IMG/VR virus record: IMGVR_UViG_3300045922_000167
Location: 1-64,000 of that record
Source: a virus
DNA: 64,000 nucleotides
Reading direction: 5' to 3' (one strand)
The notes under the pieces were generated by a model. The model saw only the letters and a program-made list of their open reading frames with translations. It was not told where the DNA came from and ran no database searches. Shown piece by piece: positions 6,001-44,400 of the stretch. Positions within the stretch are counted from its first letter, which is position 1. Every line of letters starts with the position of its first letter. A program made the position numbers and the translations under genes.

Positions 6001-9000
6001 CTTCATGGTACACAGCTTTTCTACTAACTTTTCCTTTATATCTATTTAATCCTATAGTCGCCTTAACGTCTCCACTGAGTATAGATGCAGCCTCGTAGTA
6101 CCCATTTAAAGGTATACCTTTATGCTTTAAGTTATCCTCTATGTTTGTCTGACCATACTTTTCAAACGTTTTACCAAATAGCTCAGTTAGCACACCCTTA
6201 GCTTCTAATTCTGACATATTGTAGTCAGTGTAGTCATTGTCTTCAATACTACGTTTAGAAAAACTAAAATTATTTATATCTACCTTACTTTGTGATGATC
6301 CTTGTGAATTTTGTGAGTTTTGTTGTGGCGTTGACGGTGCTTGTGTAGTTTGTGTTGATGTTGTCGGTGTTTGCGTGGATTGCGGTACAAATCTTCTTAA
6401 TGTTTGTTGCGGTTGCTGTAATGGTATACGAGCTTGTATTTCTACCCCAGTAAACTTAATTATATTACTATATACTACATCATCTATTGAGTTTGCTACG
6501 TCATTTAAGTCAAAAATTTGACCTACTCCAGGTACTCCATTTATAGAGTAATTTTTAAATAAGTCTTTGTGATTTTTACCTTTTGGTAGTACTATGTACT
6601 TGTAATATGCAGTATATAATGGTGAACGTCCATTTTTTTGTTCATACTTTTGTCTGTAAGCGGCATCAAATTTTCTAATTTGTTCTTTAATTATATTTAA
6701 ATTATCTGTAATAGTTTTTGGGTCTGGTCCATGTTGAAAGAAAATTTTACGAGATAACGTAGTTCTTATTAACAACGGAGTTAATGCCATAGTTAAATCT
6801 CGGTTAGCATTTACAAATGAATGTATTTCATTTTCTAATCGTAGAAATTCATCATCTTTTTTAAGATCCTCTTCTGTTAAGTTTTCACGTTTAATTTTGT
6901 CTTGTAACTGTTTTACAGTTTCTTCCCAAGAATCTATTAATTTTTCAATTTCCTCTACGCTTTTAAAGTTTCTTCTGTCTAACGGTAATGGGTATACTAC
7001 ATCATTAGCATCTTTAAATAAAAGATAGGCTCTACCTTTTTCTAAATTAGGTAATTTAGATATATTTTTTGAGTTTGGACTACCAGGAATATATTCTATA
7101 CTAGGATTAATTACATCTGGATAAGTTTCATCATAAACTACAGTATTAGATACATTTACTACTATTTTCCCAATAGAAGTAAGTCCTTCTTTTCCCATAG
7201 CTTCAATTAATTGCGCTATGGTACCACCATTTGTATTAGCAGCAAAAGTAGCACTTCCTATACCAGCTGTTAAATCACTAGCTTGTAATGAAGATAAAAT
7301 ACTTTCAATACTGCCTTCTTCCTCAGGTTTAAAGTTTTGAATAAAGTCATTTGTTTTTTTAATGTATATATATAATGGTGCTTCTTCTGATGTAATATTA
7401 AAAAGTGCAGGAGGGTTTATTTTACTAAATGGTAATATTTCTGCTATAGGTTTTTGATTGTAAGTTATTATTAATTTATTTCTTACTTTATCTAATTGCT
7501 CAACAGAAACATTTAATTTATTTTTTTCCTCATCATTATAAATAGCTTTAAGTAGTATATTCTTATTTAATAAATTAGTTCCAGTTTCGTCTATTAATAC
7601 ATTTATTCTAAGAGGTAAAAAATTAGAAAAATATCTTTTATATATAGCTGTTAATCTACTAGCTATCTCTGCTTCTATTTTAGCCTCTTCGTTTATTTGA
7701 ATTCCGTCAGTTTCATAAACTTTAAGATTTGAATAAATTTTCTTTTTTTCTTCCTCATTAGCTTCTTCTAATATGTTTCTAACTCTTTTTTTAGCTCCTA
7801 TTATTTTATTTAAATTATTAGAAATCTGGTGTAAAACTTCTATCTTTACTGGTAAATTAATTCCTTGGTTATCATTATTTTTTTTACCACCAACATGAAT
7901 AATAGAGTCTTTACCATCAGGTTTAATTTCCGTTGTAATTATATAACAAGGTATAGAGTCTATATCCACATTAGGATCGTCTTTTTTGTGATCCAAAAGA
8001 GCCGAATTAAGTAATTTTACATATTTATTTCTGTAATAAGATGCTTTGTTAGCTTTCGGGTCTTTTGCATCATATAAAGCATTATATGATCTTGCGTAAC
8101 TACTTGTTGGTACTTCTGAAAATTTAGAGAAGTCATGCGTATAGTAAAAATTAAAATAAGTCCATAAACCACCTTTACCTATTACTCTCATAGGTATATT
8201 ATAAAGTATACCTTTATTTATAGAGTTATCAATTTCTCCAACATTTCCAGTTTCATAATTAAGTACATCTGTAATATCAATTTCCACATTAGTTATATCA
8301 CCACCTCCAGTCAACTCAATAATTTTTGATCTTATATTTTTAAGAGTATTTTCTATTAAAGTACTATTTATTGGTTGTAATATACTTGCACTTCCATCTA
8401 TTTTAACAGTTAGATTAGTATTATAATAATCAGTAATTTCTTTAATTTGATTTTCTATTTTACGAGTAAACTCTTCTTTATTAGTAAGTATATAGTTTTT
8501 TATTAAATTGTTAAGTAAATTTCTAAATTGTATAGGTGGATTTTGTAAAGCAGTATTATCCTCAAATTGCTCATCTGCGTCTTTTAAGTTTAAACCTCTT
8601 ACAATATCATAAAGAGTGTCATACTCAGTAGGGTCTATTTCACCAGAAAGAATTTTGTTATGTTCTGGTAGTTTACCATCTACAAAGTTTATCGGTGTGG
8701 TAGGTTCGTTATCTACGTCTACGTCACTTTGTTCTGTTATAGCGTCAGCTAAGTCTTCAGCTTCTGAATCTATTTGCTGTTCGTCTTCTACTTCTACTTC
8801 TTCTACGTCTTCTACGTCTTCTACTTCTTTTCCTTCTACTTCTGTATCAGGCGGTGTGAGCGGTGCAGTGGATGTACCTGTAACGTTTGTACCATCCGTA
8901 ATTGGTGCGGCGTTTTCACCATTAACTATTGGAGTTTTTTTACTTTTTTTTCCTAAACTGTTTATTGATTTTGCTATAACTTCTGAGGTTAAGGTTACTG

Positions 9001-12000
9001 CAAAATTTATATCTTTTTCTAAATCTTCGTATTTGTTTTTTAATTGTTCATGGTATTCTAATGAAATGCTATTAATAGAATGCGCATCATCAATTTCTTT
9101 ACCATTTTGTATATTTTTAACATAAATTTGAATGTCTCTGGGTTCACTTTCATTAATTAATTTTTTTGACTCATTTAATGATTTTCTTAAATCTTTACGA
9201 GTTTGAACAATTTTTTTTACATCTTGAACGGTTAAGTTTTTTATGTTTTTAATTTCATCAAATAGATTATTAAATGTATTTAATGTTTGCTGGGTATTAG
9301 CAACAGATAAAACTGCTTCATTTATTTTATTTACTGCATTTACAAACTCATTATGTTTATAATTTACAGAATGAAGTGTTTTGTAAATTTCAGCATAAGG
9401 AAGTGGAGTTTCACCTATATCATTACCAACTAATCCTAAAAACTTTTTAGTTCTTGTAGCAGCTACTAACATTTGCTTATTGTAAGCTTCAACATTTGAA
9501 GAAGTTATAGTAGCCTTTGGTGGATCCATATCTAAAAATACGTAGTTAGCTTCTTTGCCTTGTGACTCTAATGGAGTCATTATTACTACGTTTTTTACAT
9601 CATTAAATGTTTTTTTATAATTTACTTTTTTAGACTCTGAGTTTGTAATAACAAATATCTTTTCATCGGGATTAGTACTTATTTCTTTTGATTTTTGTTT
9701 AATTAACTCCACTAAATCTGTAGCAGATTCAAATATTTTTACTCCGTATTCTAAATTTTCATCATACGAACTAAAACCACTTGTAGATGCGTAATCATCT
9801 AAAGACGATTCAATGTTGGCAATAAAAGATTTAATAACTGGATCATTATTTCTATACCTAAACATTACAGGTCTAGCAAATAACGACTCATTAAAAGTAC
9901 TTAGTAAAGGAACTGCAGGGTTTTTTACGTCTTTTTGTATTTGTGATGGATCACCAAGTAATACAAAAAAGTTATTAGGATTTGTACGAACTAAATTTTT
10001 TAATTCTTCAACATAAGCAGTATCACCATAAGCTGCTTCATCTACAACAACAATATTGTTACTATTTGTACTTAAATGGTTTTTTAAGTTTGTTAATCCT
10101 GCATTTTTTTCATCTCCTTTATGGTCTATTACTGATGGATTTAACGCACTTAAGGCATTTGTTATAGGCGTTATAGAAGTTTCATTCGGACTTGTAGTTA
10201 CTACATTATTACCAGAAAGCTGGTTAATTATCTCCACAGATGTAGCTACAACAGCAGATGTTTTACCTGCACCTGCTTTACCAAGTAAAACTACGCTGGA
10301 ATCCTTACTTAAATAAGCTAAAACTATATCAGTAATAGATAGTACTTGCTCTAAAGAAAGATAAAGACCTTCTGCTTCAGCATTCGTAAGTTTTTCTTCA
10401 AGAATTTTTAAAAATTGATCGTATAAATTTTTAGATTTTTGACTTTGTTTAATTAAGTGTAATCTTTTTATTTTATTTTGAATTTCGTATAATATCGCTG
10501 TTGAGTTATATTCATTTAAAGTAGTAATTTTGTCAACATTAACTTCTATTTTTTGTTCTTTTAAATATGCAAAAAACGTTTTTAAGTCAGATGCAAACAT
10601 AACAGAATTTCTATGTTCTCCTCTGTACTTTCCAAATATGGTCATTAATAGTCTTGCTGCTTCAACATGTTTTGAATCAGTAATAACGCTTTTTGAATCC
10701 ATATTAAAAAGATAGCCAAGCAATTTCCCATAATTGTAAGTATTTTTAGCAATAACTTCTGGAGAACTCTTACTTTCACCTCCTAAAAAAATGTTACCAG
10801 TTATACCTAATTCTTGATACAACTTTGTGTTTTTTAGCTGAGGTATGTTGTCAATATTAGGAATATTAGAAGCTGCGTCTAACATTACTAAATAATCAGA
10901 TACCGAACCTTTTAAACTGCTTTCAGTAGATCCTTGTAGTCTATTTGAAATTTCAATTAAAACATCGTAAGTAGCGGCTGGTATGTTAGGTACTTTAAGT
11001 AATTCTTTAATTTCAGTAGCTAAAGTATTAAGCGTGTTTACGTTATGTAGGTTAATAGAAGCTAATTCTTTTTTAGCTACTTCTTCTCTTTTTGTTTCCC
11101 ATACATTTAAAAAAGAATCAATTTGATTTAAGACATAATCAAGTTCAGGTTCAAAATTATAAGCATCAAAAACTTTAGCTATTACTTTAAAAGCATCAAT
11201 TAAATCATCTAATTTAGGTGCTATATGTATTACTTTTTCTGGTTCTGTATCTGTAGCTTCAATCGTCTCTTTAGTTCCTTTAGCTACTTCAACAAAGTTT
11301 CTTATAGCCTTAGCTTTATTAATAATACTTTCTATACCAACAGAAGTTAATCCTCCGTTTTGTATTATGTTATTATCTTCAATTAATCCTTGTACTATAC
11401 CTTCTAAAGTATTTAACAACGTAAAAGATTCTAATTCAAGGTCTTTAGAAAGATTTGTAAGTAATTTTTTCTTATCTATTTCTAGTTTTAATATTTTCTT
11501 TAAGTCGTCAAGATATTTTTTAACTTCTTCGCTCGACGCAATTATAGCATTTTTAAGTTTTTCAATACTTTCAGGACTTTGCGTTGTATTTTCATATTTT
11601 GTAATAAAATCTGAAATTTTATTATATTGATCATCTGAAGTTGGATCAAATCCAATTACTGTAGCTTCGTTTTCAATTTGCTTTTTTCTTTCTTTTAACC
11701 TTTTTACAAATTTATCAAAAAACTCTTTTGCTTTTTCGTTAAAAATTCCTTCAAATTTTGTTTCAAAATCTTCTAGTTGTTTTAAGTTTAAACTTTTTAT
11801 TATATTTTTAAATACATTTAAACTATCTTTATTTTTAAAACTACTAAACAAATTAGAAGAAACACCTATATTAATATCGTTATATGTTTTAGGCTCAATC
11901 GGTATACCAATAAAATCAAAAGCCTCTATAGGATTTCCTTCTGCATCTTTAAGCGTTTCATTTATTACAAATGAATCAAAAGATATATTTTTTAGATAGT

Positions 12001-15000
12001 TGTTTAACTTCTCAGCATTTGGTATTTTCGGTCTAACAATTACATCCCCATTATTTGATAATGTTAAATCAAGTAGATTAAATGGAGAATTAGCAATAGA
12101 AACATCTAAAATAGATGTATTCTTTGCTTGAGTTTTTTCAAAATATTTAGAAACTTCTGGATCAAACCTGCTATTAAATATTTTAGCCTGATTGTGTAAA
12201 AAGTTAATTCTAGCTGCCTGTAAAGCTTTTTGTTTTTTATTTAAAAGAGATACATTATTTTTAGTTTCTTCTTCTGATAATACAAGGTTATTAGCTTCAT
12301 TACGTTCTTTAAAATATATTAAATTCGCTTTAGCTAGCTCTACAAAACCACCTGACTGCATTACCATTAAACGAGTACTTAAGTTATCATACTCTTTATA
12401 GGCATTTTTTATATCTTCTTTAATAAGTTCTTTTTCAGCTGGTGGTATATCAACATCTTTTAATTTAGCTTCTTGATCTACAATATATCTTTGTAAATAA
12501 TGTTGATGTGCTAAAGTATCAGTTACTTTTTTAGTATATTTATTATGGAAATTTTTTAAGAAAACTTTATCATTTTCATCTAGATCTAATCCATAATAAG
12601 ATGAATTATCTACATTAAACCAACTTAACGGTTTAAGTAAAGATTTTTTTGTACTTCCAAATAATTTATTTATTTCTATTTCAGTTTCTACTCTATCAAT
12701 TAAAAATTCTTTTAAGAATTCTTCAGCATTTAAACTTTCTGGTTTAATTCCTGTTTTACGTTCAAAAGTTTCGTAAAACATTTTTAATAAGTTATAATCT
12801 CCTTTACTTACTGCATCTATATCTTCTTCTGTAGCTAATCCTTTATTTTTTAGTACTTGTAATTCAAATAATAGTTGTGATTTTGTTTTATCTATTGTAG
12901 AAACACCTACGTGACTTGACTTTAATTTTGATGGTGATAATAGTTGTAAAGTATATTCCTGTGTATCAGGCGAAAAAGTACCTAAAGTATGTTTAGCTAC
13001 ATCGGATAAATCCATTGATCTAATAGCATCAATTATTGTGTTTTTATCCGTAAACTCTAACATACTAAGTACGTTATCAGATACACTTGCTAATTTTTCT
13101 ATTTTAGCATTTGTTTTAAACTGACGTATTCCTTGAAGGAAAGCAGTAGGAGCACCTGAACCAAAGCCTAATAGCGCACCTTTTAAAGAGTTATTAAATG
13201 CTCTTACGTAGTTAAAACTACCATCTTCATCTGCTGATACCATACCTCCACTGAGCATTCGTTCAGCCACTAGTATTTTGTCTGGGTGGTTCTTATACTT
13301 TTCATACAAATGAAATGAAGCTATTTCTTCATGTAAAGTTTCCTTAAATTCATCAAAAAACTCAGCAGAAAAAGGCGTTGCTGATGTTAATACTCTTTTC
13401 GCTATTGTAGGAATTACTATGTCTTTTTTAAATTCTTTCAAATAAGCTGAAACAGCTTGAGGTCCATACAAGCTATTTAATGCTATCTTTTGTATAGCTT
13501 GTTCATGTAATTTAGTTGCGTTAACAAAAAATGGTTTTAAGTTAGCTTCAGGTAAAAACGCACTAGTTAACATGTACAAAGAACCAAGTTCTTGTGCTGC
13601 TATGGCTGCATCTTCTGGGTCTATACCTATTCTAATCCAATCTTGGTAAATAGATTCTACGGCTATTTTAGTAAACGTATTATTGGCAAAATAATTTGCC
13701 ATAAATGCGTCTAAAATTTTAATATTACTTGCTGCTGGGTTAGCAATTATTTTACTTGCTCCAGCTACGAGCTTTTCGCCAGACCAAAATAAAGGTTTTA
13801 ACGGCGTACTTCTTGCTGCTTTGTAAGCTTCACCAACACCAGAAACTAAACTTTCTCCAGCTTTAACAGCTCCAGGCAAATACTTAGTAGTAGCCTTTGA
13901 GATTGGTCTATATATAGCAGAAAATTTTGCGTTTATTACGTCATCTGTAAAAGTTAAACCTTTACCAACAACTTTACCTGCAAGTCCTAAAGCACTTCCA
14001 GTAGTAGCTGTTTTTGCTAAAATACGAGAACCAATAGCACCGCCTAATTTAGCACCTCCTTGTACACCTTTAGATACTGCGCCACCAACAAATAAAGTAG
14101 GTATTGCTGGAACAACGCTACCTATCGTAAAAGGAATAGCAGTTTCGTAAAAATCTGGAGTAATTAAAGACATAAAAGCCTCTGGATACGTACTAGGTTT
14201 ATCTATACTAAAATTGCTAAATAACTCATCTACGTTTTTTGGTCTATCTGCAAATGGATGAGCTTCTTTATAACCACGTAATTTAGATAAATTAGCTGCG
14301 TAAGACTTAAATAACTCTGCACGATTTAGTAATCCTAAATCATTACCTTCTATACCTAAAGCAGAAAAAGCAGCTGAACTTGGATTTTTTACAGTACCAG
14401 CATTAAGTATAACTTCATCAAAAAAGCCATTTAAAGCATCTGTAATAACATTGACATTAGGCATAATATATTTAGCCCCAATGTTTACCCAAAGTTTTTC
14501 ATACCATTCGTTTGGCGTAAACTCATAGTTTTCTTGTTTTCTTTTATTTTCTACTAAAGAAAGAACTTGAAAATATCTAGCGTCTTTTTTTAAAATGTCT
14601 CTTAAAGCTGCTTGCTCAGGTGTATCGTTTTCCTCGTAAAAACTTAACGGAGTATATTTTACTTTTTGAGTTTTTGCTATATCTTTTAAGACATCTTGAA
14701 AAAGAGAAAAATGAGGAAACCTACTAGCTTCATATCTAGCATTTCTTATGTTTTCCCAATTATCTTTAACGAGTTTAACCGATTCTGTACCTACTCTGGT
14801 TAAAAATCCAGTTACACCTCTTTCTAATATTTCATCTGCTGATCCATACCCACCAGATGTATTTAACGCACGAGACAGTAAATAAGGATTTCCTTTTTCC
14901 TCGTCTGTTAACTCTCTATAAGTTGGTATAGGTATATTATTTTTATCTACTTTCCATTTATCTTGTGGCTCTAAAATTATTACTTTGCCTTTATAATCTC

Positions 15001-15376
15001 CTTTTTTTAATTTGTTTATATCTAATGTTTTCCAATTATTGTCGTTTGCTATATAAAGGTTTTTAGCAAGAGTTAAATTTTGTATATCAGGATGATCGTT
15101 AGGATTAATTTTAGGTATATTTTCTTTTTCGTATTCGTGATAGATTTTACGATTAATTAAGGACTCATTAAAAAGACTTCCAATAGAAGAATGATAACCG
15201 CTTATACCATAAGAGTTTTTATATAAAGCTTTAATATTAGCTTTAACTGAAGTTTGGTTAATATATTCTTCTAAGGATTTAGTATTTTTATATCCTTCGT
15301 GAATTCTTTCATTATCACTACCTACAGGTGGATCTTGTTTTGGTGGTTCTGGTTGTATTAATAAACTTTCAGGCAT
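1..15376 (-). CDS. Giant virion RNA polymerase polyprotein (>5,125 aa, runs off the window): hydrophobic N-terminal region + SF1 helicase + zincin + two-barrel RNAP
   Basis: ATG at 15376 (MPESLLIQPEPPKQDPP). In the same frame: GKAGAGKT (from 10282), VVVDEA, LLGDPSQ, SQGKE and VAATRTK; HEAFH (6007-5993) plus EEWMADTF; GIRIPSTGKNS; MGSDFDVDKL (DFDVD at 1102-1088). The ORF track lists no minus-strand ORF here, as expected if the frame has no stop before the window edge. Not every codon was checked by hand. Confidence 0.9.
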   Translation of the reverse strand, partial: MPESLLIQPEPPKQDPPVGSDNERIHEGYKNTKSLEEYINQTSVKANIKALYKNSYGISGYHSSIGSLFNESLINRKIYHEYEKENIPKINPNDHPDIQNLTLAKNLYIANDNNWKTLDINKLKKGDYKGKVIILEPQDKWKVDKNNIPIPTYRELTDEEKGNPYLLSRALNTSGGYGSADEILERGVTGFLTRVGTESVKLVKDNWENIRNARYEASRFPHFSLFQDVLKDIAKTQKVKYTPLSFYEENDTPEQAALRDILKKDARYFQVLSLVENKRKQENYEFTPNEWYEKLWVNIGAKYIMPNVNVITDALNGFFDEVILNAGTVKNPSSAAFSALGIEGNDLGLLNRAELFKSYAANLSKLRGYKEAHPFADRPKNVDELFSNFSIDKPSTYPEAFMSLITPDFYETAIPFTIGSVVPAIPTLFVGGAVSKGVQGGAKLGGAIGSRILAKTATTGSALGLAGKVVGKGLTFTDDVINAKFSAIYRPISKATTKYLPGAVKAGESLVSGVGEAYKAARSTPLKPLFWSGEKLVAGASKIIANPAASNIKILDAFMANYFANNTFTKIAVESIYQDWIRIGIDPEDAAIAAQELGSLYMLTSAFLPEANLKPFFVNATKLHEQAIQKIALNSLYGPQAVSAYLKEFKKDIVIPTIAKRVLTSATPFSAEFFDEFKETLHEEIASFHLYEKYKNHPDKILVAERMLSGGMVSADEDGSFNYVRAFNNSLKGALLGFGSGAPTAFLQGIRQFKTNAKIEKLASVSDNVLSMLEFTDKNTIIDAIRSMDLSDVAKHTLGTFSPDTQEYTLQLLSPSKLKSSHVGVSTIDKTKSQLLFELQVLKNKGLATEEDIDAVSKGDYNLLKMFYETFERKTGIKPESLNAEEFLKEFLIDRVETEIEINKLFGSTKKSLLKPLSWFNVDNSSYYGLDLDENDKVFLKNFHNKYTKKVTDTLAHQHYLQRYIVDQEAKLKDVDIPPAEKELIKEDIKNAYKEYDNLSTRLMVMQSGGFVELAKANLIYFKERNEANNLVLSEEETKNNVSLLNKKQKALQAARINFLHNQAKIFNSRFDPEVSKYFEKTQAKNTSILDVSIANSPFNLLDLTLSNNGDVIVRPKIPNAEKLNNYLKNISFDSFVINETLKDAEGNPIEAFDFIGIPIEPKTYNDINIGVSSNLFSSFKNKDSLNVFKNIIKSLNLKQLEDFETKFEGIFNEKAKEFFDKFVKRLKERKKQIENEATVIGFDPTSDDQYNKISDFITKYENTTQSPESIEKLKNAIIASSEEVKKYLDDLKKILKLEIDKKKLLTNLSKDLELESFTLLNTLEGIVQGLIEDNNIIQNGGLTSVGIESIINKAKAIRNFVEVAKGTKETIEATDTEPEKVIHIAPKLDDLIDAFKVIAKVFDAYNFEPELDYVLNQIDSFLNVWETKREEVAKKELASINLHNVNTLNTLATEIKELLKVPNIPAATYDVLIEISNRLQGSTESSLKGSVSDYLVMLDAASNIPNIDNIPQLKNTKLYQELGITGNIFLGGESKSSPEVIAKNTYNYGKLLGYLFNMDSKSVITDSKHVEAARLLMTIFGKYRGEHRNSVMFASDLKTFFAYLKEQKIEVNVDKITTLNEYNSTAILYEIQNKIKRLHLIKQSQKSKNLYDQFLKILEEKLTNAEAEGLYLSLEQVLSITDIVLAYLSKDSSVVLLGKAGAGKTSAVVATSVEIINQLSGNNVVTTSPNETSITPITNALSALNPSVIDHKGDEKNAGLTNLKNHLSTNSNNIVVVDEAAYGDTAYVEELKNLVRTNPNNFFVLLGDPSQIQKDVKNPAVPLLSTFNESLFARPVMFRYRNNDPVIKSFIANIESSLDDYASTSGFSSYDENLEYGVKIFESATDLVELIKQKSKEISTNPDEKIFVITNSESKKVNYKKTFNDVKNVVIMTPLESQGKEANYVFLDMDPPKATITSSNVEAYNKQMLVAATRTKKFLGLVGNDIGETPLPYAEIYKTLHSVNYKHNEFVNAVNKINEAVLSVANTQQTLNTFNNLFDEIKNIKNLTVQDVKKIVQTRKDLRKSLNESKKLINESEPRDIQIYVKNIQNGKEIDDAHSINSISLEYHEQLKNKYEDLEKDINFAVTLTSEVIAKSINSLGKKSKKTPIVNGENAAPITDGTNVTGTSTAPLTPPDTEVEGKEVEDVEDVEEVEVEDEQQIDSEAEDLADAITEQSDVDVDNEPTTPINFVDGKLPEHNKILSGEIDPTEYDTLYDIVRGLNLKDADEQFEDNTALQNPPIQFRNLLNNLIKNYILTNKEEFTRKIENQIKEITDYYNTNLTVKIDGSASILQPINSTLIENTLKNIRSKIIELTGGGDITNVEIDITDVLNYETGNVGEIDNSINKGILYNIPMRVIGKGGLWTYFNFYYTHDFSKFSEVPTSSYARSYNALYDAKDPKANKASYYRNKYVKLLNSALLDHKKDDPNVDIDSIPCYIITTEIKPDGKDSIIHVGGKKNNDNQGINLPVKIEVLHQISNNLNKIIGAKKRVRNILEEANEEEKKKIYSNLKVYETDGIQINEEAKIEAEIASRLTAIYKRYFSNFLPLRINVLIDETGTNLLNKNILLKAIYNDEEKNKLNVSVEQLDKVRNKLIITYNQKPIAEILPFSKINPPALFNITSEEAPLYIYIKKTNDFIQNFKPEEEGSIESILSSLQASDLTAGIGSATFAANTNGGTIAQLIEAMGKEGLTSIGKIVVNVSNTVVYDETYPDVINPSIEYIPGSPNSKNISKLPNLEKGRAYLLFKDANDVVYPLPLDRRNFKSVEEIEKLIDSWEETVKQLQDKIKRENLTEEDLKKDDEFLRLENEIHSFVNANRDLTMALTPLLIRTTLSRKIFFQHGPDPKTITDNLNIIKEQIRKFDAAYRQKYEQKNGRSPLYTAYYKYIVLPKGKNHKDLFKNYSINGVPGVGQIFDLNDVANSIDDVVYSNIIKFTGVEIQARIPLQQPQQTLRRFVPQSTQTPTTSTQTTQAPSTPQQNSQNSQGSSQSKVDINNFSFSKRSIEDNDYTDYNMSELEAKGVLTELFGKTFEKYGQTNIEDNLKHKGIPLNGYYEAASILSGDVKATIGLNRYKGKVSRKAVYHEAFHLIFDGFVTDSEKRKYLDYVKKKYLKNTKSSDIEAEEWMADTFQELRPYKDTILNKLFSYLKELVYILIGRTYDPKFLFNRAQRGYYKGKLPNLSNDHIYYSKSGRIEAKKSLVNSNKNELLAPFTHNKHYYDFIYQYRSQLVLDTILNFSALAINNNLPPTNLSFGIEERFKKANEVRNVLNEIFNTFTDDPSKFYLSLREYIESGYSSINPLQELYEIIFDENGYIRSEFDEYFDLINDYDNWLAEVGLNPDPTRGTFNNQLITDIYYTYWMVNEDKKIRKIGATLLSLITHSKANIFLDEDVKDKLKKEELEIIAKEKNTNVPIDDDDLYDGSEEADVEIKQEEDSIEEQTDAETKKLLKNLGGLNASVDTQELSGFEGIKLLLSVVPKFASSKSLGVFINKLNKVVELQQIPIEQRTIEQQKELFKTLVDLTQNVRNRSASFLYPEQALKAAYIEVNEFKKLNPGVPLTPMTFKTYLENFILKTGNYIYDEYGNEIIVDEEEKINLDNHRLSILSSLYVALYGNNSGSYSPGFLLTVQEQNIIASNLLEQENIKIKLNQAQNLFNSLFYYAESVRDYQYATIKIDEDGEFVLRFDTVNDSLENTRNLLENNILEFIGNKDKFKYTSTEDYASIKFIITVNKEQQEYKLLFVNGGWRLFKNETNVVNGKEIKDEKLIASGNENFVSSSNETAKTEAARFAFSLFNASLRVNVSKLTADEYLNALNTFFTTIIPEHIGTESTKSTTNNKDYRNATLDLASQLIDYSSRLHNSHTLNAEGKNVQGTGFVTPNDKHWKRRANQLQNMFKENGIKISSSAFSLETSIDILGIEYTFYDRSTQKKLTSDELFGIDYSLFRQSLVKNKTKKYYQRMPTIGDSSRVLLAENAKFFTVEDLEKNYNAEINKAIAIVKLFLEQEQIQFNHKFKNVLYEPVKHSFILSHFLLRDQSITITNIDEAAQHIVSSLLNIANNDYVAFKNVLGYLKPEDTLAHFVCFTLNQYLNSIAHTYVLVGNIYGYKTTKLDSNRNIQVVLQSGSADIQKRINLPNNMGNPGNYSSFRRNNGQSKTYILPSVFKKSYDGLAVLVNGTEPLEGSDGISYMLPHYAYERSLKYGGTYNTSLGAVTKDKNADFDEQTELVNLEKYSLMYIDGTTYYTNQDIFDRFLNLAYKGDQNAVQKAKFLIDTSKKRVDLQLIDTSTFKNVEEKLLHDRKLQKAKYDEFLAYSDLINYLNENNIIPIDRLIDPSARKDSSPISASDQLVTDYLNGGNEIPIISDDSLRTVHEYAQSQIYDPVGAISPNESISVSTQQLYIAVSSFIDSSLKSMEDSEISKYRAQINKLQRASKALFNRGRTKIAEELIKSGVKAIQAIRDRAALDSQQDPTNLDETMYSILSNSSINSNLAVVASELTKATFRWFTKEVAKQTMPGTHYVLQPDMKALTPNRLKWYNYRFDQKKLTDEEKKIFDIDGHEGLMNHFIEVAKKIQNESDKSTVKTKLSALRKEFFNKILESGEVEVRVPYKFTKKFEYLFNEIPKENWIENAKERISRYGITYSSNIAILKNNVANTEGLTQAELNEVEDLITFLQTLQMFGIRIPSTGKNSAIIVKIKEIIDTNVNIMQVPAEVVLFMGSDFDVDKLTTYNYTVTTINDRAFIEVPTEEEYSGDTSKINAKKLKNDLLLNYINLWRLPYSQAQAAKPISYQSVEALIDSPNTTNNVESPLNNPIVEAKRSSGFYGYKNQIAHYHNANSAGTDLVGFGVTFNKVYMLLQSLNTDELPIQLEPLTFFVPASSTEPKELKRIEYKGKIEESKTLFTIGEVPSFIDDLCQTILDNLKIQLTGKLNVSKETVGKMLTMVSLGTPLEDTARFFKHPLIVDYVTFIEHGKLVKANKGRLNKSAAGIDPNKIAKYNLSKEEFRQYLIAQYSNSIGENTAKALIQTFDDIERFERDNIGPFRKFFSLTNGYSPSYTDQIKMIEKYNKILIENPQLSKIFKIIFGEI

Positions 15377-36640: not shown

Positions 36641-37240
36641 TTACTCATTATTTTGCTTTTCTAACATTCCTAATATACCAGATTCTATTAACGATAATTC
36701 CGCATTACCTCTAGATTTACCTGTTTTCTTATTTTCTACTTCAGCTTTAAGTTTCTTACCTAATTCTATTACTTTATCTAACTTAGTCATTACGGTAACT
36801 ACTGCATCTATGTTTTCCATAGTACATACATTATTATCTAATACCATCTGAATTTCCTCTATTTTCCTAAAGTAGGAATCTACCATTCGTTGTTCAGGTG
36901 TTACAAGTAAAGGTTTAACTATTTCACAAAAAGATTTGTACGTAGGATTCGTCAAGTACTCTTCTAATTTCTGATTATTTTGAAATAGTATCTTCTTTAC
37001 TTCGTTACATCTACTTTCGTACGGGTATTTATAATACGGAGAATCTGGATCTTCAGTTAACGCAAAGTACTGAAGTAACTTATATCCAATTTCTTTTTGA
37101 TTCCAAGTAATTGGTTTAGTTATATTAACTTCGTTATCCTTTAATTCTTTAGGTAACGCCAATAACTTGTGAGTTATAGGTAGCAATCTAAGTTGATACG
37201 TTAACTCCGCTTCTTGTGTGTGATTAAATTCAAATATCAT
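36641..37240 (-). CDS. Hypothetical protein, candidate terminase small subunit
   Basis: First gene of the left arm, upstream of terL, helical; likely start MIFEF at 37240. Confidence 0.45.
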   Translation of the reverse strand: MIFEFNHTQEAELTYQLRLLPITHKLLALPKELKDNEVNITKPITWNQKEIGYKLLQYFALTEDPDSPYYKYPYESRCNEVKKILFQNNQKLEEYLTNPTYKSFCEIVKPLLVTPEQRMVDSYFRKIEEIQMVLDNNVCTMENIDAVVTVMTKLDKVIELGKKLKAEVENKKTGKSRGNAELSLIESGILGMLEKQNNE

Positions 37241-37521: not shown

Positions 37522-37818
37522 ATGAACCAAGAACCACAACCAAAAGTTGTGTTCAACGTGGAAACCTTGAATAAACTTCTCGCTGTAAGCGAGAGGTATA
37601 CTCAAGGCGTTCCCGTGAACGCAGAAGTGGTAATTCGTGGTAGCAGGGGGTTCAAGATGCTGTCTGCGGACGGCATTTTGGCGCTCCCAGCGCCCACAAT
37701 GCCACAGGAGATGTTGATCGCAGGGGAGACCCTACCCTGCGTATTTAAGGAAATTGGGGGCACGATTCGTGCCTCCCTTGATGTAGAGGCAGCACGGGCT
37801 GCTACATCAAGCAAGTAG
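37522..37818 (+). CDS. Early hypothetical protein (GC-rich)
   Basis: First gene of the right arm, followed by a terminator. Confidence 0.7.
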   Translation: MNQEPQPKVVFNVETLNKLLAVSERYTQGVPVNAEVVIRGSRGFKMLSADGILALPAPTMPQEMLIAGETLPCVFKEIGGTIRASLDVEAARAATSSK

Positions 37819-38046: not shown

Positions 38047-38376
38047 ATGGCTAGATATTTATTAATCATCGCTGCCATGTTGCTGATAGTTGCATGCGAG
38101 TCGGAGCACGAACTCCGCTTGCGTGAGCTGTCGGCAGTAGCTGACAAGCTGTCAAGTCTCGACAGCGCTGAGTTTCAGACTGAGATTACAAATCTCAAGT
38201 CCGAAATGTGGCGCTACGAGGCAAAGGCGGAAAGGCTCGACTCTTTGTTCGAGCACACGCCTAATGACAGAGCCAGAGTCGAGCTTAGAGAAGAAGCTGA
38301 AAGGCTTCGTCTCGAAGCCAGCTATTCAAGGTATCTCCTTGATTTAGCTGAGACTCGCTGGGCTATTCGTCAGTAG
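38047..38376 (+). CDS. Early lipoprotein (coiled coil)
   Basis: MARYLLIIAAMLLIVA-C signal peptide with lipobox-like Cys. Confidence 0.65.
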   Translation: MARYLLIIAAMLLIVACESEHELRLRELSAVADKLSSLDSAEFQTEITNLKSEMWRYEAKAERLDSLFEHTPNDRARVELREEAERLRLEASYSRYLLDLAETRWAIRQ

Positions 38377-39643: not shown

Positions 39644-39955
39644 ATGAAAAAACTGATAAACCTTACTGGACATGACGTAGTCATTAACGGTGAGATAATT
39701 GAACCTCGATTGAGATTAAGAGTAGAATTTGAAAAAACCTACGTTGACGGCTTATATGTCTTTCAAATTAAAGACAATACGCCTAAACAACGTGAGGGTG
39801 TGTTATACATAGTTAGCGAAAAATACGCTAGTGTATTTAGGAGAAAAGATATAGTATTTCCAGTCAACCAATTACGTGACATTAACAATAAAGTCATAGC
39901 GTGTGGGGGATTAGGATACTATAAAAGAATGAGACCAGAAAAAACATCTGGTTGA
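39644..39955 (+). CDS. NLTPH-family protein, paralogue 1 (possible Crn4-like ring nuclease)
   Basis: LINLTGH...GVLYIVS...RKDIVFP...RD...VIACGGL. Confidence 0.5.
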   Translation: MKKLINLTGHDVVINGEIIEPRLRLRVEFEKTYVDGLYVFQIKDNTPKQREGVLYIVSEKYASVFRRKDIVFPVNQLRDINNKVIACGGLGYYKRMRPEKTSG

Positions 39956-40116
39956 TTATGTTTGATAAATCTCTATCATGCAGAGATGATAAATGTATGA
40001 CGTGTCGGAACAACGAAAGAGTTCTATGTGTTATCTTAACCCCTCAACGTAGTGCACGGCGTTGGGGGATTTTTAATCCTCTCTGTGCAACCACTGAGTG
40101 TTAATATCTTATTTCT

Positions 40117-40629
40117 ATGTGTGTAAAGATAAATAACAGATTAAGTTCCTACGAAGCCTACGTTAGGAACGTAAGGAACTTACTAATAGCTATACTCATC
40201 CTGTGTTCTTGTCGCCCATGCGAAAGGAACGTCAGGAACGATGTTATTCCTGTTAGTACTCAGTGTGAGATAAGAGAGATTAAAAATTTTATAGAATTAA
40301 AACATATCCTACAACGTTATGATATACCTTGTCAGGATATGTTCGTGAAAATAGCTATGTACGAAAGTGCATGGTTAAGTAGTAGTTTACATGTTACGTA
40401 CAATAATTCATTCGGTTGGTGTTATACTGAACATGAAGATATTTGTGCTAACGTGTATGGTAGCGCTCATTTTGCTTCTTACGAAAAGCAATTTGAGTTC
40501 ATGGTTAAATGGGTTAACTTAAATCCTAAACGTCCCACCGAATCGTGTGAGGACTACTTTAGGAGAAGACATTACAATGTCGTTAACCCTAATTATTACA
40601 ACATTTTAAGTAAAATCATAATCAATTAA
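40117..40629 (+). CDS. Glucosaminidase/lysozyme-like (GH73-type) protein with hydrophobic/lipobox-like N-terminus
   Basis: IAMYESAWLSS...YNNSFG resembles GH73 LESGWG.S...NNLFG; C-terminal YNVVNPNY; LLIAILILCSC segment. Confidence 0.55.
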   Translation: MCVKINNRLSSYEAYVRNVRNLLIAILILCSCRPCERNVRNDVIPVSTQCEIREIKNFIELKHILQRYDIPCQDMFVKIAMYESAWLSSSLHVTYNNSFGWCYTEHEDICANVYGSAHFASYEKQFEFMVKWVNLNPKRPTESCEDYFRRRHYNVVNPNYYNILSKIIIN

Positions 40630-40634
40630 ATAAA

Positions 40635-40973
40635 ATGGAAAATATTCACAAAATAATCAATTTAACTCCCCACGTTATAAACGTGGTGGAGGATGACAAA
40701 ATTATATTAACGTTACCACCTAGCGGCACTGTCGCTAGGGTTAAAACCGAAGAGTACGTCATAGGCGTACTCAATAAAACGGTATGTATTTATGAGATAG
40801 AATTAGAGGAAGTCTACGGACTTCCTGAACCAGAAAAGGACACATTTTACATTGTGTCCTTAATAACGGCACAAAGCTTGAAAGGCGTCAGAAATGACAT
40901 TTTAGTCACGCACGGAGCAATCCGTGATAGTAACGGCAATGTAATTGGCTGCAAGGGCTTTGCTCGTGTGTAG
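40635..40973 (+). CDS. NLTPH-family protein, paralogue 2 (possible Crn4-like ring nuclease)
   Basis: IINLTPH...PSGTVARV...GLPEPEKDTFYIVS...RNDILV...RDSNGNVIGCKGF. Confidence 0.6.
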   Translation: MENIHKIINLTPHVINVVEDDKIILTLPPSGTVARVKTEEYVIGVLNKTVCIYEIELEEVYGLPEPEKDTFYIVSLITAQSLKGVRNDILVTHGAIRDSNGNVIGCKGFARV

Positions 40974-40992
40974 CCTATATATATGATGTATA

Positions 40993-41035
40993 AAATAAGC
41001 CAAAGGACTTTACGTTCTTTGGCTTATTTGTTTTT
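40993..41035 (+). terminator. Intrinsic terminator
   Basis: AAATAAGCCAAAGGAC/GTTCTTTGGCTTATTT stem plus T tract. Confidence 0.8.
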
Positions 41036-41046
41036 AAAGTGTTAAG

Positions 41047-41199
41047 ATGAAAGAAAACAAAAATAGTAAGTTTTTCAACTTACTTGTGAAAAAATACCCT
41101 AACGTACCCAGGAGTGTACTTAGGTGTATTTACGATTACTCCTATAACATAAAAGAACAATTAATCTTAATTTACAATATTTACAATGACAGTCATTAA
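41047..41199 (+). CDS. Small hypothetical protein (50 aa, below the ORF-track cutoff)
   Basis: MKENKNSKFFNLLVKKYPNVP... fills the gap before the 41186 ORF. Confidence 0.35.
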   Translation: MKENKNSKFFNLLVKKYPNVPRSVLRCIYDYSYNIKEQLILIYNIYNDSH

Positions 41200-41425
41200 A
41201 AAAATTAATTTCAAAAAACAACAAATTGTAGCTTCAAACGTAAGCTACACGTTGTTTGAATACCACAACGAGGTGTGCAACATAATGGGCGCTGCTGGCT
41301 GCCCCAAAGCAGAATTACCAGCGCTTGGTGATGTTGTGTCCTACTTCGATCTATACGAACTATATGGATCGTATGACCCACAAAAATGTGCAGTAATTTT
41401 GTTAAAAAAGAAACTTTACATATAA
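41186..41425 (+). CDS. Hypothetical protein
   Basis: 79-aa ORF, TAATG-coupled to the next ORF. Confidence 0.55.
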   Translation: MTVIKKINFKKQQIVASNVSYTLFEYHNEVCNIMGAAGCPKAELPALGDVVSYFDLYELYGSYDPQKCAVILLKKKLYI

Positions 41426-41637
41426 TGGGTCTGTATCTGTGGAATGTAAAAAAAGAAAACAATACTTACGAAACCAAGTATTGTGATCTGCGACACATAG
41501 TATCCTTAGTAAAAAAGGAACTAATCTTAAAAGCTCAAACCGTTTTAGACGGTGTGATAGTTACAGTAAAACATGAAAATGATGAAAACGATGAAAATGA
41601 TAAATCTACTCCAGCACAACATCAAAATGCTGGATGA
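41425..41637 (+). CDS. Hypothetical protein
   Basis: Start MGLYLW overlaps the upstream stop (TAATG). Confidence 0.45.
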   Translation: MGLYLWNVKKENNTYETKYCDLRHIVSLVKKELILKAQTVLDGVIVTVKHENDENDENDKSTPAQHQNAG

Positions 41638-41926
41638 AAATCTGCAAATAAGACAAGAAATCCCATCTGAGGGATTAGCATGGGTAGAGCAACGTTATCT
41701 GATTAAAGATAACGTTGCTGGTGTTCCCGTACTTGATGTTGAGTACGGTAATATTAGCGGCCTTCCAGAGCCGCAAGATGGCGTTGTGTATATCGTTAAC
41801 GGATTAGTAGCAGCTGTTGCTGCTGCTAGAGGTCGGAATGACGTGTATTCTGTACACGTTCAGAAAAATAATAAGAAGATTATCGGGGTTAAAAGCCTCG
41901 TACTACCGCAAAAACTAATATTTTAA
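41573..41926 (+). CDS. NLTPH-family protein, paralogue 3 (divergent NLLQH)
   Basis: MINLLQH...PSEGLAWV...GLPEPQDGVVYIVN...GRNDVY...IIGVKSL; start uncertain because of several ATGs. Confidence 0.55.
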   Translation: MKMMKTMKMINLLQHNIKMLDENLQIRQEIPSEGLAWVEQRYLIKDNVAGVPVLDVEYGNISGLPEPQDGVVYIVNGLVAAVAAARGRNDVYSVHVQKNNKKIIGVKSLVLPQKLIF

Positions 41927-41934
41927 TTAATAAC

Positions 41935-44400
41935 ATGTTAAAGTTTAAGAGTAAAAAAGAGGCGTACGAATGGAGACGCCAATACCAGTCGATCTATTAC
42001 GAGCATACTGGTAATAAATTTTATACAAAAAACCCCTTACATTCAAGGGGATACGTAGGTATAGAGGTGAGATTTTATGCTCACCATAGTCACGGATTAA
42101 ATGTAAGAGGGTTATTCAAAAGTAAAATAGAGGAATGCCCTCTATTGTTTAATAACATTCCCAAAATTGAATTAGATTATAAAGATTTAGAAATATCTAA
42201 ATCTTGGAACTTGGAAAGAAACCAATTAAGTATTGGTTTCAATCCAAGACAAATTATTGAATTATTAGAAAACCATCAAATAACTCGAGATGATCTCGAG
42301 TTTTTAATATTCGAGGTAGAAGTAGGAGCTGCGTTCTCTCGAGAATATAGTTTCTATTACAAGGACAAAAGTGAACAAGAATTTGAAGATCAAGCAATCA
42401 AAGATTTTCAAAACCAATTACCAAAAGCATGTTACAACATGAAACCCATGTTGCTTGCTTTACGTGATACTGACCGTGTAGCTTTATTTAAAACCCCAGA
42501 CAGAAATAAGAATGGGGAAAAGAAGAGTTATACTTATATGGAGATATGGCATAACCATTGCCATTTACTCCCTAAAGCTAGCAAAGGGGAGCTGAGACAA
42601 TGTAATTATGACCAAATGAATTCTGATGAAAAAGAATTCGTAAATCATGTAAGTAATATTGTAAGTAAAACTTACAACATAGACGAAACAAAATCGTCTA
42701 TAGTAAGGTATGGTAATCGTATATTTAGTATTGCCTTCAAGGTAAATGTTGAAAGCAATCCTAACATACTAGTTCTTGCGGATGATTCTGCTATGTATAA
42801 TCATCATAGCTACGATGTATCATTTAACGGTATAACTAAAGCTATGTACAGTCAACATGCTGTACTTAAAGCTGAGTTAGGTAGTCTGAAAGAACATAAC
42901 AAAATTTCAGATAGTTTTATTTATGAAGCCTTAATAGGGCAAATTAAAACTAGCTGTTTTAACACACTTAGTAGAATATCTGAGTGTAAATATCAAGGAA
43001 GAGAAAATATCCTAAACTTAAAAGGATATCGTTCCATTGATTACAACCTAGCCAATCATGGAATTGCTATCCCTATGAGAGAAGACATAAAAGACGACTT
43101 CATAGAAGAAGTCATCAAAAAAGTGTGCTTCTTTTCTTTGAGTAATAAAGCTGCTAGTACGATGTATTTAGCTCCTTACCAAAGAGAAGGTTATCAGAAT
43201 TATAAAGTTATTGAAATAGAGGGCAGTAATGCTGTCTTAGGGTTTAAACATCAACCTACGCTTAACAAGAAATTGTTAGCGACAGACAATTACAATCCTC
43301 TGGTAGACTTAAAAAACAGCGGTATGCTGTTTGACCTGGAGTATAATATAAGTTATTTACCAGATCTATGGTCAATAACTCATTATATTATAAACTACTT
43401 GGTGAAACCGATATCTTTAAAACATTTTAAGAAAATGTTAAAAAAGGTATCCAACCAATTCAACATAACTAATGTTGATATAATTAAAGAATTCAACATT
43501 GGTAATGTTAATGCAGGTTTAATGTACAAAGCAATGTATTGGCTTTGTATGTTAGAAATACTAAAAGATCAAGACATTAAACCCATAAGTGTAAGCAGGC
43601 TAATAAATGACGTTGAATATTTTGAAGACGTCATAAATTTACCTCGTAATTCAAGCAATTTAGAAATTTATGCTCTAAGTGAAACAAGTTCAGAAAAACG
43701 CAAACAGTTTATTAAAGCTGCGTTTGAAAAAGAACAAGAATCACTTAAAGCAGAGTATGAAAAGTATATTGTACATGCTAGAATCAAAATCTTCAACGAA
43801 GTTGTAAGACTTCAAGCAAAGAATGATTATAATAGCAGGTATAATGATCCAGTCCTAATTCTTTCCAACGGTAAGAATTTAGAAAAGTCAAACAATAAGT
43901 ACAAAATAACCGAAGAAATACAAAAAGCCTATCAGGTGTATTTAGATAAATTTGGTTATTTATTGGAAGGAGAGTACGATATAGAAACTTTAATTAATAC
44001 CCACTACACAAACACTCACAATCCGCTATTAGACCATAACGAGTCTTATACGGATTTAAGTGAAGGTATAAGGTTTCATATTGACTATGAGAACAAACGT
44101 GCGGTAACATCTAAAGGCATTATCGTAACGTTTGACAAGTTAAGGGAATACATCAAAAGTTTTTCTCAAAACCAGCCTATCGTAACAACGTATGGCGTAG
44201 GTAAGATTGAGAACAACTATATTGCTATTGGATGCCATTTAATTCATTCCAGCCAAATAAAACATCTGTACGACAACATTCCTGACGTACAAAACGTAGA
44301 GATCGACTGGAGTTTGTATGAAACGAAGTTCCCTATTCCTACTCTAATGTCTCTTGAAGAGTACATAGAGAGGAATAGTAAATACGCTAAATTGTTATAG
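41935..44400 (+). CDS. Large hypothetical protein (821 aa)
   Basis: Long ORF; no motif recognised. Confidence 0.8.
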   Translation: MLKFKSKKEAYEWRRQYQSIYYEHTGNKFYTKNPLHSRGYVGIEVRFYAHHSHGLNVRGLFKSKIEECPLLFNNIPKIELDYKDLEISKSWNLERNQLSIGFNPRQIIELLENHQITRDDLEFLIFEVEVGAAFSREYSFYYKDKSEQEFEDQAIKDFQNQLPKACYNMKPMLLALRDTDRVALFKTPDRNKNGEKKSYTYMEIWHNHCHLLPKASKGELRQCNYDQMNSDEKEFVNHVSNIVSKTYNIDETKSSIVRYGNRIFSIAFKVNVESNPNILVLADDSAMYNHHSYDVSFNGITKAMYSQHAVLKAELGSLKEHNKISDSFIYEALIGQIKTSCFNTLSRISECKYQGRENILNLKGYRSIDYNLANHGIAIPMREDIKDDFIEEVIKKVCFFSLSNKAASTMYLAPYQREGYQNYKVIEIEGSNAVLGFKHQPTLNKKLLATDNYNPLVDLKNSGMLFDLEYNISYLPDLWSITHYIINYLVKPISLKHFKKMLKKVSNQFNITNVDIIKEFNIGNVNAGLMYKAMYWLCMLEILKDQDIKPISVSRLINDVEYFEDVINLPRNSSNLEIYALSETSSEKRKQFIKAAFEKEQESLKAEYEKYIVHARIKIFNEVVRLQAKNDYNSRYNDPVLILSNGKNLEKSNNKYKITEEIQKAYQVYLDKFGYLLEGEYDIETLINTHYTNTHNPLLDHNESYTDLSEGIRFHIDYENKRAVTSKGIIVTFDKLREYIKSFSQNQPIVTTYGVGKIENNYIAIGCHLIHSSQIKHLYDNIPDVQNVEIDWSLYETKFPIPTLMSLEEYIERNSKYAKLL

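Follow-up and report, generated by a model that had tools for sequence, protein, structure and literature searches.

The window analysed here comprises the first 64,000 nucleotides of the IMG/VR virus record IMGVR_UViG_3300045922_000167, which is 90,888 bp long and carries direct terminal repeats. Between positions 39644 and 41926 the window encodes three small proteins that are homologues of the ring nuclease Crn4, with Crn4b as their nearest characterized relative. The open reading frames (ORFs) are numbered along the + strand, and residue positions that apply family-wide are given in ORF2 numbering. ORF1 (39644..39955, + strand; 103 amino acid residues (aa)) is a Crn4b-like protein with a truncated β-hairpin arm, ORF2 (40635..40973, + strand; 112 aa) is of the canonical Crn4b type, and ORF3 (41573..41926, + strand; 117 aa, with a later ATG possibly the true start) has the Crn4 fold and keeps its histidine, H15. 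The original prediction, made from the DNA letters and their translations, had placed three diverged paralogues at precisely these coordinates and had assigned them to Crn4; both the positions and the assignment are borne out. A family-profile search of the whole 90,888-bp genome found exactly these three places (E-values of 1.8e-45, 7.5e-38 and 1.5e-26), which are the only Crn4 copies that it carries.

Membership of the family was established by direct sequence matches, by profile matches and, for ORF2 and ORF3, by AlphaFold models that match Crn4 only. Pairwise BLASTP comparison of the sequences (E-values of 6e-10 for ORF2–ORF3, 3e-6 for ORF1–ORF2 and 0.007 for ORF1–ORF3, at identities of 26–31%) puts the similarity among the three well above chance. 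In hhalign comparisons with a profile built from 15 canonical members of the family, ORF1 and ORF3 not among them, ORF1 aligned over residues 1–94 (probability of 97.9% and E-value of 3.9e-13) and ORF3 aligned with a probability of 99.1% and an E-value of 5.6e-19. In phmmer searches of the Protein Data Bank (PDB) sequences, Crn4b (PDB entry 9r7b) was the top match for all three (E-values of 1.8e-9 over the full length for ORF2, 8e-8 for ORF1 and 0.009 for ORF3). Crn4a (PDB entries 9sma and 9qs9) came second for ORF1 and ORF2 (E-values of 0.0009–0.011), and no Crn4a match was found for ORF3 up to an E-value of 10, leaving 9r7b as its sole hit. The AlphaFold (AF2) models of ORF2 and ORF3 have predicted local distance difference test (pLDDT) scores of 95.3 and 94.9, respectively, and the Foldseek comparison that the original prediction had proposed as a check found Crn4 similarity for both, with 9r7b matched at a template modelling (TM) score of 0.81 and E-value of 5e-11 by ORF2 and at 0.70 and 2e-7 by ORF3; beyond the Crn4 entries, the remaining PDB hits have E-values near 1. 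On these matches, the Crn4 fold (paired β-strands, one short helix and an extended β-hairpin arm) is assigned to ORF2 and ORF3, and for ORF1 it is predicted from the alignment. None of the three ORFs matched a Pfam family, and among the PHROGs only two families without known function were matched (phrog_30542 and phrog_21731), with the domain lying behind an N-terminal extension in both.

Crn4, which was described only in 2025, is a small homodimer of a new fold, in which the extended β-hairpin of each subunit wraps the partner and one cyclic oligoadenylate (cOA) is bound at the dimer interface (Chi et al. 2025, PMC12830947). Residues T13, H15 and R112 are common to all members described there and define the family. 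Substitutions H15A and R112A abolish the activity of Crn4a, and T13A keeps some activity, making T13 the less critical residue; H15 is the general acid, and H15 and R112 are contributed by different monomers (PMC12830947). The H15A variant of Crn4a still binds cyclic hexa-adenylate (cA6) in the crystal, and the ligand contacts of Crn4a include S91, through its hydroxyl to cA6, and R112 (PMC12830947). Crn4a cuts cA3, cA4, cA5 and cA6, whereas Crn4b, with a hairpin shorter by about 10 residues, cuts cA3 and cA4 and not cA6; at high concentration Crn4a also cuts a poly(A) 12-mer, a slow reaction of questionable physiological relevance according to the authors (PMC12830947). Homologues of Crn4b were reported in 11 of 28,137 phage genomes and proposed to be anti-CRISPRs, directed against clustered regularly interspaced short palindromic repeats (CRISPR) immunity (PMC12830947).

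Features in common with Crn4b (from Hyphomicrobiales bacterium MBK8772583) are the size class, the fold, the short-arm ('b') architecture and the NLTPH, ARV, LP, YIVS, RxD and RD...IGC motifs, and ORF2 aligns with it end to end at 29% identity. Crn4b is a single copy, in contrast to the three found here, and neither the arm of ORF1, shorter than in the sampled members, nor the loss of Thr and Arg in ORF3 has a counterpart in it. Crn4a (from Actinomyces procaprae, WP_136192672) has the same fold and the same catalytic His and Arg, which act across the dimer interface, and it alone among the members has both a ligand-bound structure and in vivo results. However, its hairpin is about 10 residues longer, it cuts cA6, and its gene is found in type III-D CRISPR loci rather than in phages.

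Most of the motifs described in the original prediction are present in all three proteins: the N-terminal INLTGH, INLTPH and INLLQH, then YIVS, YIVS and YIVN, then RKD, RND and RND, and finally VIAC, VIGC and IIGV (in ORF1, ORF2 and ORF3, respectively). The LPEP motif occurs in ORF2 and ORF3 but not in ORF1, which has NTPKQ in that position. The shared RxD corresponds to R86-x-D88; the catalytic Arg lies farther downstream, in the RD of IRD or LRD, where ORF3 has QK. The catalytic His (H15 in Crn4a and H17 in Crn4b) is aligned in all three proteins, as ORF1 H10, ORF2 H13 and ORF3 H15. The catalytic Arg (Crn4a R112 and Crn4b R103) corresponds to ORF1 R78 and ORF2 R97 and is replaced in ORF3 by Q97, followed by K98. 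Similarly, the Thr two residues before the His (Crn4a T13) is ORF1 T8 and ORF2 T11, and ORF3 has L13 instead. The active-site drift proposed earlier is real, but it is concentrated in ORF3, where Leu stands in place of Thr, Trp in place of R35, Asn in place of Ser and Gln in place of the catalytic Arg.

ORF2 holds all of the conserved residues (N9, T11, H13, R35, P64, S75, R86-x-D88 and R97-D98) and reaches up to 50% identity with canonical relatives; a strain variant that is 98% identical keeps every key residue. ORF1 retains its own conserved set (T8, H10, R26, S58, R67-x-D69 and R78-D79), as does its 95% identical strain variant P0173 for all key residues. However, its hairpin-arm stretch of 19 residues is the shortest among the 179 family domains and 55 further domains compared (median of 26, minima of 25 and 22), and the segment preceding the arm is also at the family minimum length. 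Because the arm is much shorter although the catalytic pair is kept, the ligand cavity or ligand range of ORF1 is probably different.

ORF3 differs from the canonical sequence by T13L, P14Q, R37W, S76N, R97Q at the catalytic Arg and D98K, and its architecture is otherwise normal, with the LPEP loop and R88-x-D90 kept. It thus lacks two of the three residues called universal in the Crn4 paper, as well as the Ser that in Crn4a touches cA6 through its hydroxyl; besides the Thr and the catalytic Arg, two further near-invariant residues are gone. On its residues, ORF3 is best classed as a homologue with the Crn4 fold and not as a canonical active member, and an ORF3 homodimer should be a poor or inactive nuclease, given that the fold and His are present but the Arg is absent. 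In a word-index search of a 5.8-billion-protein database, ORF1 and ORF3 matched only themselves or strain variants, and ORF3 only itself; a search for ORF3 orthologues in IMG/VR and the JGI metagenomes returned distant canonical members only. In co-occurring strains, indels at 41874 and 41882 and a loose alignment end at 41873 fall within ORF3. Translation of these listed indels and loose ends yields two variants at codons 101–104, in which KKII becomes RRLV and RKVV; in both loops the pattern of two basic residues followed by two hydrophobic ones is preserved, and one of the changes arises from paired frameshifts that compensate each other. Since the confidence of its model matches that of ORF2 and the loop changes in strain variants are conservative, ORF3 appears to be maintained and is probably not decaying.

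The extent of the family was assessed by a profile search of 1.84 billion cluster representatives (50% identity) at E ≤ 1e-3, which returned 12,015 cluster representatives at 50% identity; Pfam holds no model for the family. Homologues are found in genomes of Bacillota, Patescibacteria, Betaproteobacteria, Methanosarcinaceae and Aenigmatarchaeota. A residue table was compiled for 184 domains from the best 150 of the 12,015 representatives, aligned to the profile, and in these domains His13 and Arg97 are kept in every stand-alone protein except ORF3. A further 55 loci (37 IMG/VR viral and 18 cellular) were selected by the N-terminal pattern KIINLTPH only, a choice skewed towards canonical N-termini, and among them R35 is invariant and the position of Arg97 is occupied by R in 53 and by K in 2. 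In one viral Crn4 gene (locus L043:5535-6471), an insertion divides the profile match in two, and a 63-aa N-terminal Crn4 fragment lies just upstream.

Ten of the best 150 representatives are tandem two-domain Crn4–Crn4 proteins (P0028, P0029, P0030, P0031, P0032, P0035, P0043, P0076, P0083 and P0122), and, ORF3 apart, every loss of His or Arg in this sample falls in these fusions. In P0030, P0032, P0035 and P0076, domain 1 keeps the His and has lost the Arg, and domain 2 has lost the His and keeps the Arg. The sole loss in P0028 is the Arg of domain 1, and in P0029, P0031, P0043 and P0122 a single His is lost and nothing else. As each site combines a His and an Arg from different subunits, exactly one composite site is intact in nine of the ten fusions, the exception being P0083, the first domain of which is poorly aligned. 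These complementary losses provide independent support for an active site that spans the dimer, as the crystal structure shows, and the fusions point to single-site Crn4 enzymes that have not yet been described. Four of the tandem fusions (468–521 aa) possess an extra N-terminal region of approximately 220–260 aa with no Pfam match, and these four probably represent one lineage. To our knowledge, no tandem, heterodimeric or paralogous form of Crn4 has been characterized. Such forms are not mentioned in the Crn4 paper (PMC12830947) or in the later TSR1 preprint, in which a fused Crn4 domain forms the canonical dimer.

The original prediction spoke of a triplication, which the comparison does not demonstrate. 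The copies are 28–29% identical to each other and no nearer to one another than to unrelated family members, and their best identities to proteins from outside are higher (38% for ORF1, 50% for ORF2 and 44% for ORF3); in the identity ranking for ORF2, its own paralogues stand 171st and 172nd of 181. ORF1 and ORF3 sit on long branches in the tree, which is weakly resolved, and an approximately unbiased (AU) test neither rejected nor supported a single clade for the three copies (p-value of 0.51). The copies may have arisen by an ancient duplication with fast divergence or by separate acquisition. Multiple copies are rare in the samples compared: a second full Crn4 domain within 6–8 kb was found at none of the 55 loci (a short fragment was found at one), and each of the 20 INPHARED records with an ORF2 homologue has it in one place.

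The genes sit on a phage, as indicated by the terminal repeats and by the genes for the large terminase subunit (TerL), a crAss-type portal, DNA polymerase A and helicases, including one that is DnaB-like. TerL is approximately 28–30% identical to that of crAss-like phages of Bacteroidota, and the gene content identifies the source as a divergent crAss-like phage; Crn4 genes are known from mobile elements as well as from type III CRISPR loci, and a phage genome is a setting of the former kind. No close phage relatives were found in IMG/VR when it was queried with an 821-aa protein encoded behind ORF3 and with the DNA polymerase. The sequencing runs that contain this DNA are labelled as hot springs and microbial mat metagenome. 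The Crn4 genes are found a short distance to the right of the point at which leftward structural genes and rightward replication genes diverge, with small orphan genes around them, and their GC fractions (0.35 for ORF1, 0.41 for ORF2 and 0.40 for ORF3) exceed that of the window (0.316). The first two rightward genes (37522–37818 and 38047–38376) have GC fractions of 0.52 and 0.50 and no family match, and are probably recently acquired accessory genes.

Contigs from co-occurring strains of the same hot-spring sample series vary in this region. In one strain contig, positions 40609–40980, the slot of ORF2, are swapped for 706 other letters, and in three runs positions 41178–41403, the place of a small ORF (41186–41425), are swapped for 218 other letters; a weak joint that skips ORF1, one side of which is only 30 letters, was not used as evidence. 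The island is in flux; its elevated GC and the differences between co-occurring strains are what one would expect of accessory genes that serve anti-defence. Terminator-like hairpins with T-runs follow two of the genes on the + strand. One (40041..40068), with a 10-bp stem containing 6 G–C pairs, lies approximately 90 bp past ORF1 and is a consensus match only; the other (40993..41029), with a 16-bp stem, lies directly 3′ of ORF2, and a search of metagenome contigs with the exact 29-mer of this terminator gave no match. The stop codon of ORF3 lies 9 bp upstream of the gene for the 821-aa protein. The position of the second hairpin suggests that the unit containing ORF2 stops being transcribed there, with ORF3 transcribed in the following unit along with the replication genes.

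Taken together, the most likely role of these genes is counter-defence against type III CRISPR signalling or against cyclic oligonucleotide-based antiphage signalling systems (CBASS). Encoded in an accessory region that leads the rightward early and replication genes, the proteins would act as follows, by homology with characterized Crn4. The dimer would close its two β-hairpin arms over the cOA, and the ring would be cut without metal, by a His and an Arg supplied by different subunits, to yield linear An>P. Messengers of the cA3 or cA4 type, made by the host Cas10 of type III CRISPR or by CBASS cyclases, would in this way be removed before CARF or SAVED effectors are activated. ORF2 would serve as the standard enzyme, ORF1 would probably have an altered cavity or ligand range, and ORF3 would most likely either pair with ORF1 or ORF2 in an asymmetric dimer with one composite site or bind the signal uncut. 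We consider this account as a whole, in which Crn4b-type genes of three kinds serve counter-defence, to be probable; the activity, ligand range and oligomeric state that it attributes to the proteins, and the counter-defence role itself, are what we infer from family, fold and residues. A functional parallel is provided by AcrIII-1/Crn2 (DUF1874, PF08960), a small homodimeric viral protein that uses a catalytic His to cut cA4 on both sides to A2>P and thereby disarms type III CRISPR. However, its fold is unrelated to that of Crn4, and a search of the entire genome for PF08960 at E ≤ 1 returned nothing.

Of the options raised in the original prediction (different specificities, heterodimers or a sponge), the present data give substance to the heterodimer and the sponge in the case of ORF3, and to an altered ligand cavity in that of ORF1. 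The tandem fusions offer a model for how ORF3 might act. Judged by its residues, an ORF3 homodimer would contain two sites of His and Gln, and ORF3 paired with ORF2 or ORF1 would contain one intact site. The state of domain 1 in P0028, with the His kept and the Arg lost, is the same as that of ORF3, although the domains of the fusions are covalently joined, ORF3 is a separate gene approximately 600 bp from ORF2, and the fusion domains are not specially related to ORF3 in the tree. The complementary losses make a one-site heterodimer plausible for ORF3, with a non-cutting binder equally possible. That ORF3 must pair with ORF2 or ORF1, contributing the Arg-less subunit of an asymmetric heterodimer (a 'split' tandem fusion with a single composite site), is offered as a tentative proposal, more likely wrong than right. 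Several observations limit the analogy with the fusions and the reading of ORF3 as impaired on its own. The hairpins suggest that the three genes are not co-transcribed, which leaves obligate pairing without support from that side. The loop from which the Arg was lost is still basic (QKNNKK, with K98 beside Q97), and, as two family members have a K at the Arg position, ORF3 may possess some activity of its own. Moreover, the list of the best 150 representatives, in which stand-alone losses were confined to ORF3, is skewed towards canonical sequences.

Binding without cutting is a possibility that we rate as less likely than not: ORF3 would be a non-catalytic homodimeric sponge, and ORF1 and ORF2 would be independent homodimeric nucleases with different ring-size preferences, with no heterodimers formed. 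The apparent placement of ORF3 in a transcription unit other than that of ORF2 agrees with this, as do its retained fold, LPEP loop, R88-x-D90 and basic loop, and the H15A variant of Crn4a indicates that binding outlives catalysis. However, S76N and R97Q alter two positions whose side chains are among the few in contact with the ligand (S91 and R112 in Crn4a), so that affinity may be reduced, and a sponge must be present in amounts that match the signal level. It is doubtful that the copies represent mere redundancy, or were gained one after another in a slot with rapid turnover, with ORF3 and perhaps ORF1 drifting to loss and nothing functionally distinct among them. The low identity among the copies relative to their best outside matches would be explained in this way, as would the GC fractions that differ between the copies and from the genome, the replacement of the ORF2 slot in a co-occurring strain and the long branches of ORF1 and ORF3. 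All three frames are nevertheless intact, the strain variants of ORF1 and ORF2 keep their key residues, the loop variants of ORF3 are conservative, one of them by a compensated double frameshift, and the model of ORF3 equals that of ORF2 in confidence. Finally, a role outside counter-defence, with another substrate (linear RNA, poly(A) ends or a nucleotide made by the phage) serving phage expression or nucleotide metabolism, seems very improbable. The cleavage of poly(A) by Crn4a at high concentration, and a family of 12,015 clusters that is far larger than the type III CRISPR loci by which Crn4 was defined, could be read in its favour, but the RNA cleavage is slow and of a relevance that the Crn4 authors themselves question, binding and cleaving cOA are the only functions demonstrated for the fold, also within the fused TSR1 effector, and the siting among variable accessory genes fits anti-defence.

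Phage-encoded Crn4b as a likely anti-CRISPR has already been published (PMC12830947). New here are the three-member Crn4 set in one crAss-like genome, the mini-arm form represented by ORF1, the form without Arg and Thr represented by ORF3, and the parallel between ORF3 and the single-site tandem fusions. We know of no phage Crn4 copy that has been tested so far, and this one genome supplies a natural three-protein panel, canonical, mini-arm and Arg-less. As the longer-armed Crn4a cuts cA6 and Crn4b does not, the mini-arm ORF1 could reveal how arm length sets ring-size specificity, and the Arg-less ORF3 could show whether the Crn4 fold is able to bind without cutting or to form one side of an asymmetric dimer. 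A heterodimer, if it forms, would open the ring once instead of making two cuts, or would handle an asymmetric ligand; it would be the first heteromeric ring nuclease, and would give the phage three distinct Crn4 assemblies with which to counter different signals of the host. If ORF3 is instead a binder, it would be the first example of a Crn4-fold protein acting as a signal sponge. Published accounts cover only a small part of the family, and its presence in divergent crAss-like phages of thermal mats suggests that these phages face cOA signalling as an important obstacle.

Several neighbouring features were also recorded. Between ORF1 and ORF2 lies a glucosaminidase-like gene of 170 aa that has no relation to Crn4 (40117..40629, + strand; PF01832 with an E-value of 2.9e-7 and 31.6 bits, against a cut-off of 30.2) and that has an N-terminal repeated stretch of the VRNVRN type. 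The gene for the 821-aa orphan protein (41935–44400) stands directly behind ORF3 and precedes the DNA polymerase; its product has no Pfam, PHROG or protein-atlas match and no IMG/VR relative. No tRNA genes were found in the window. Terminator-like hairpins are enriched between positions 37000 and 45000, with 24 found against 5.0 ± 2.5 expected from shuffled sequences. The − strand contains one uninterrupted reading frame (2–15376) that exceeds 5,125 aa, runs past the window end and is very large even for crAss-like phages.

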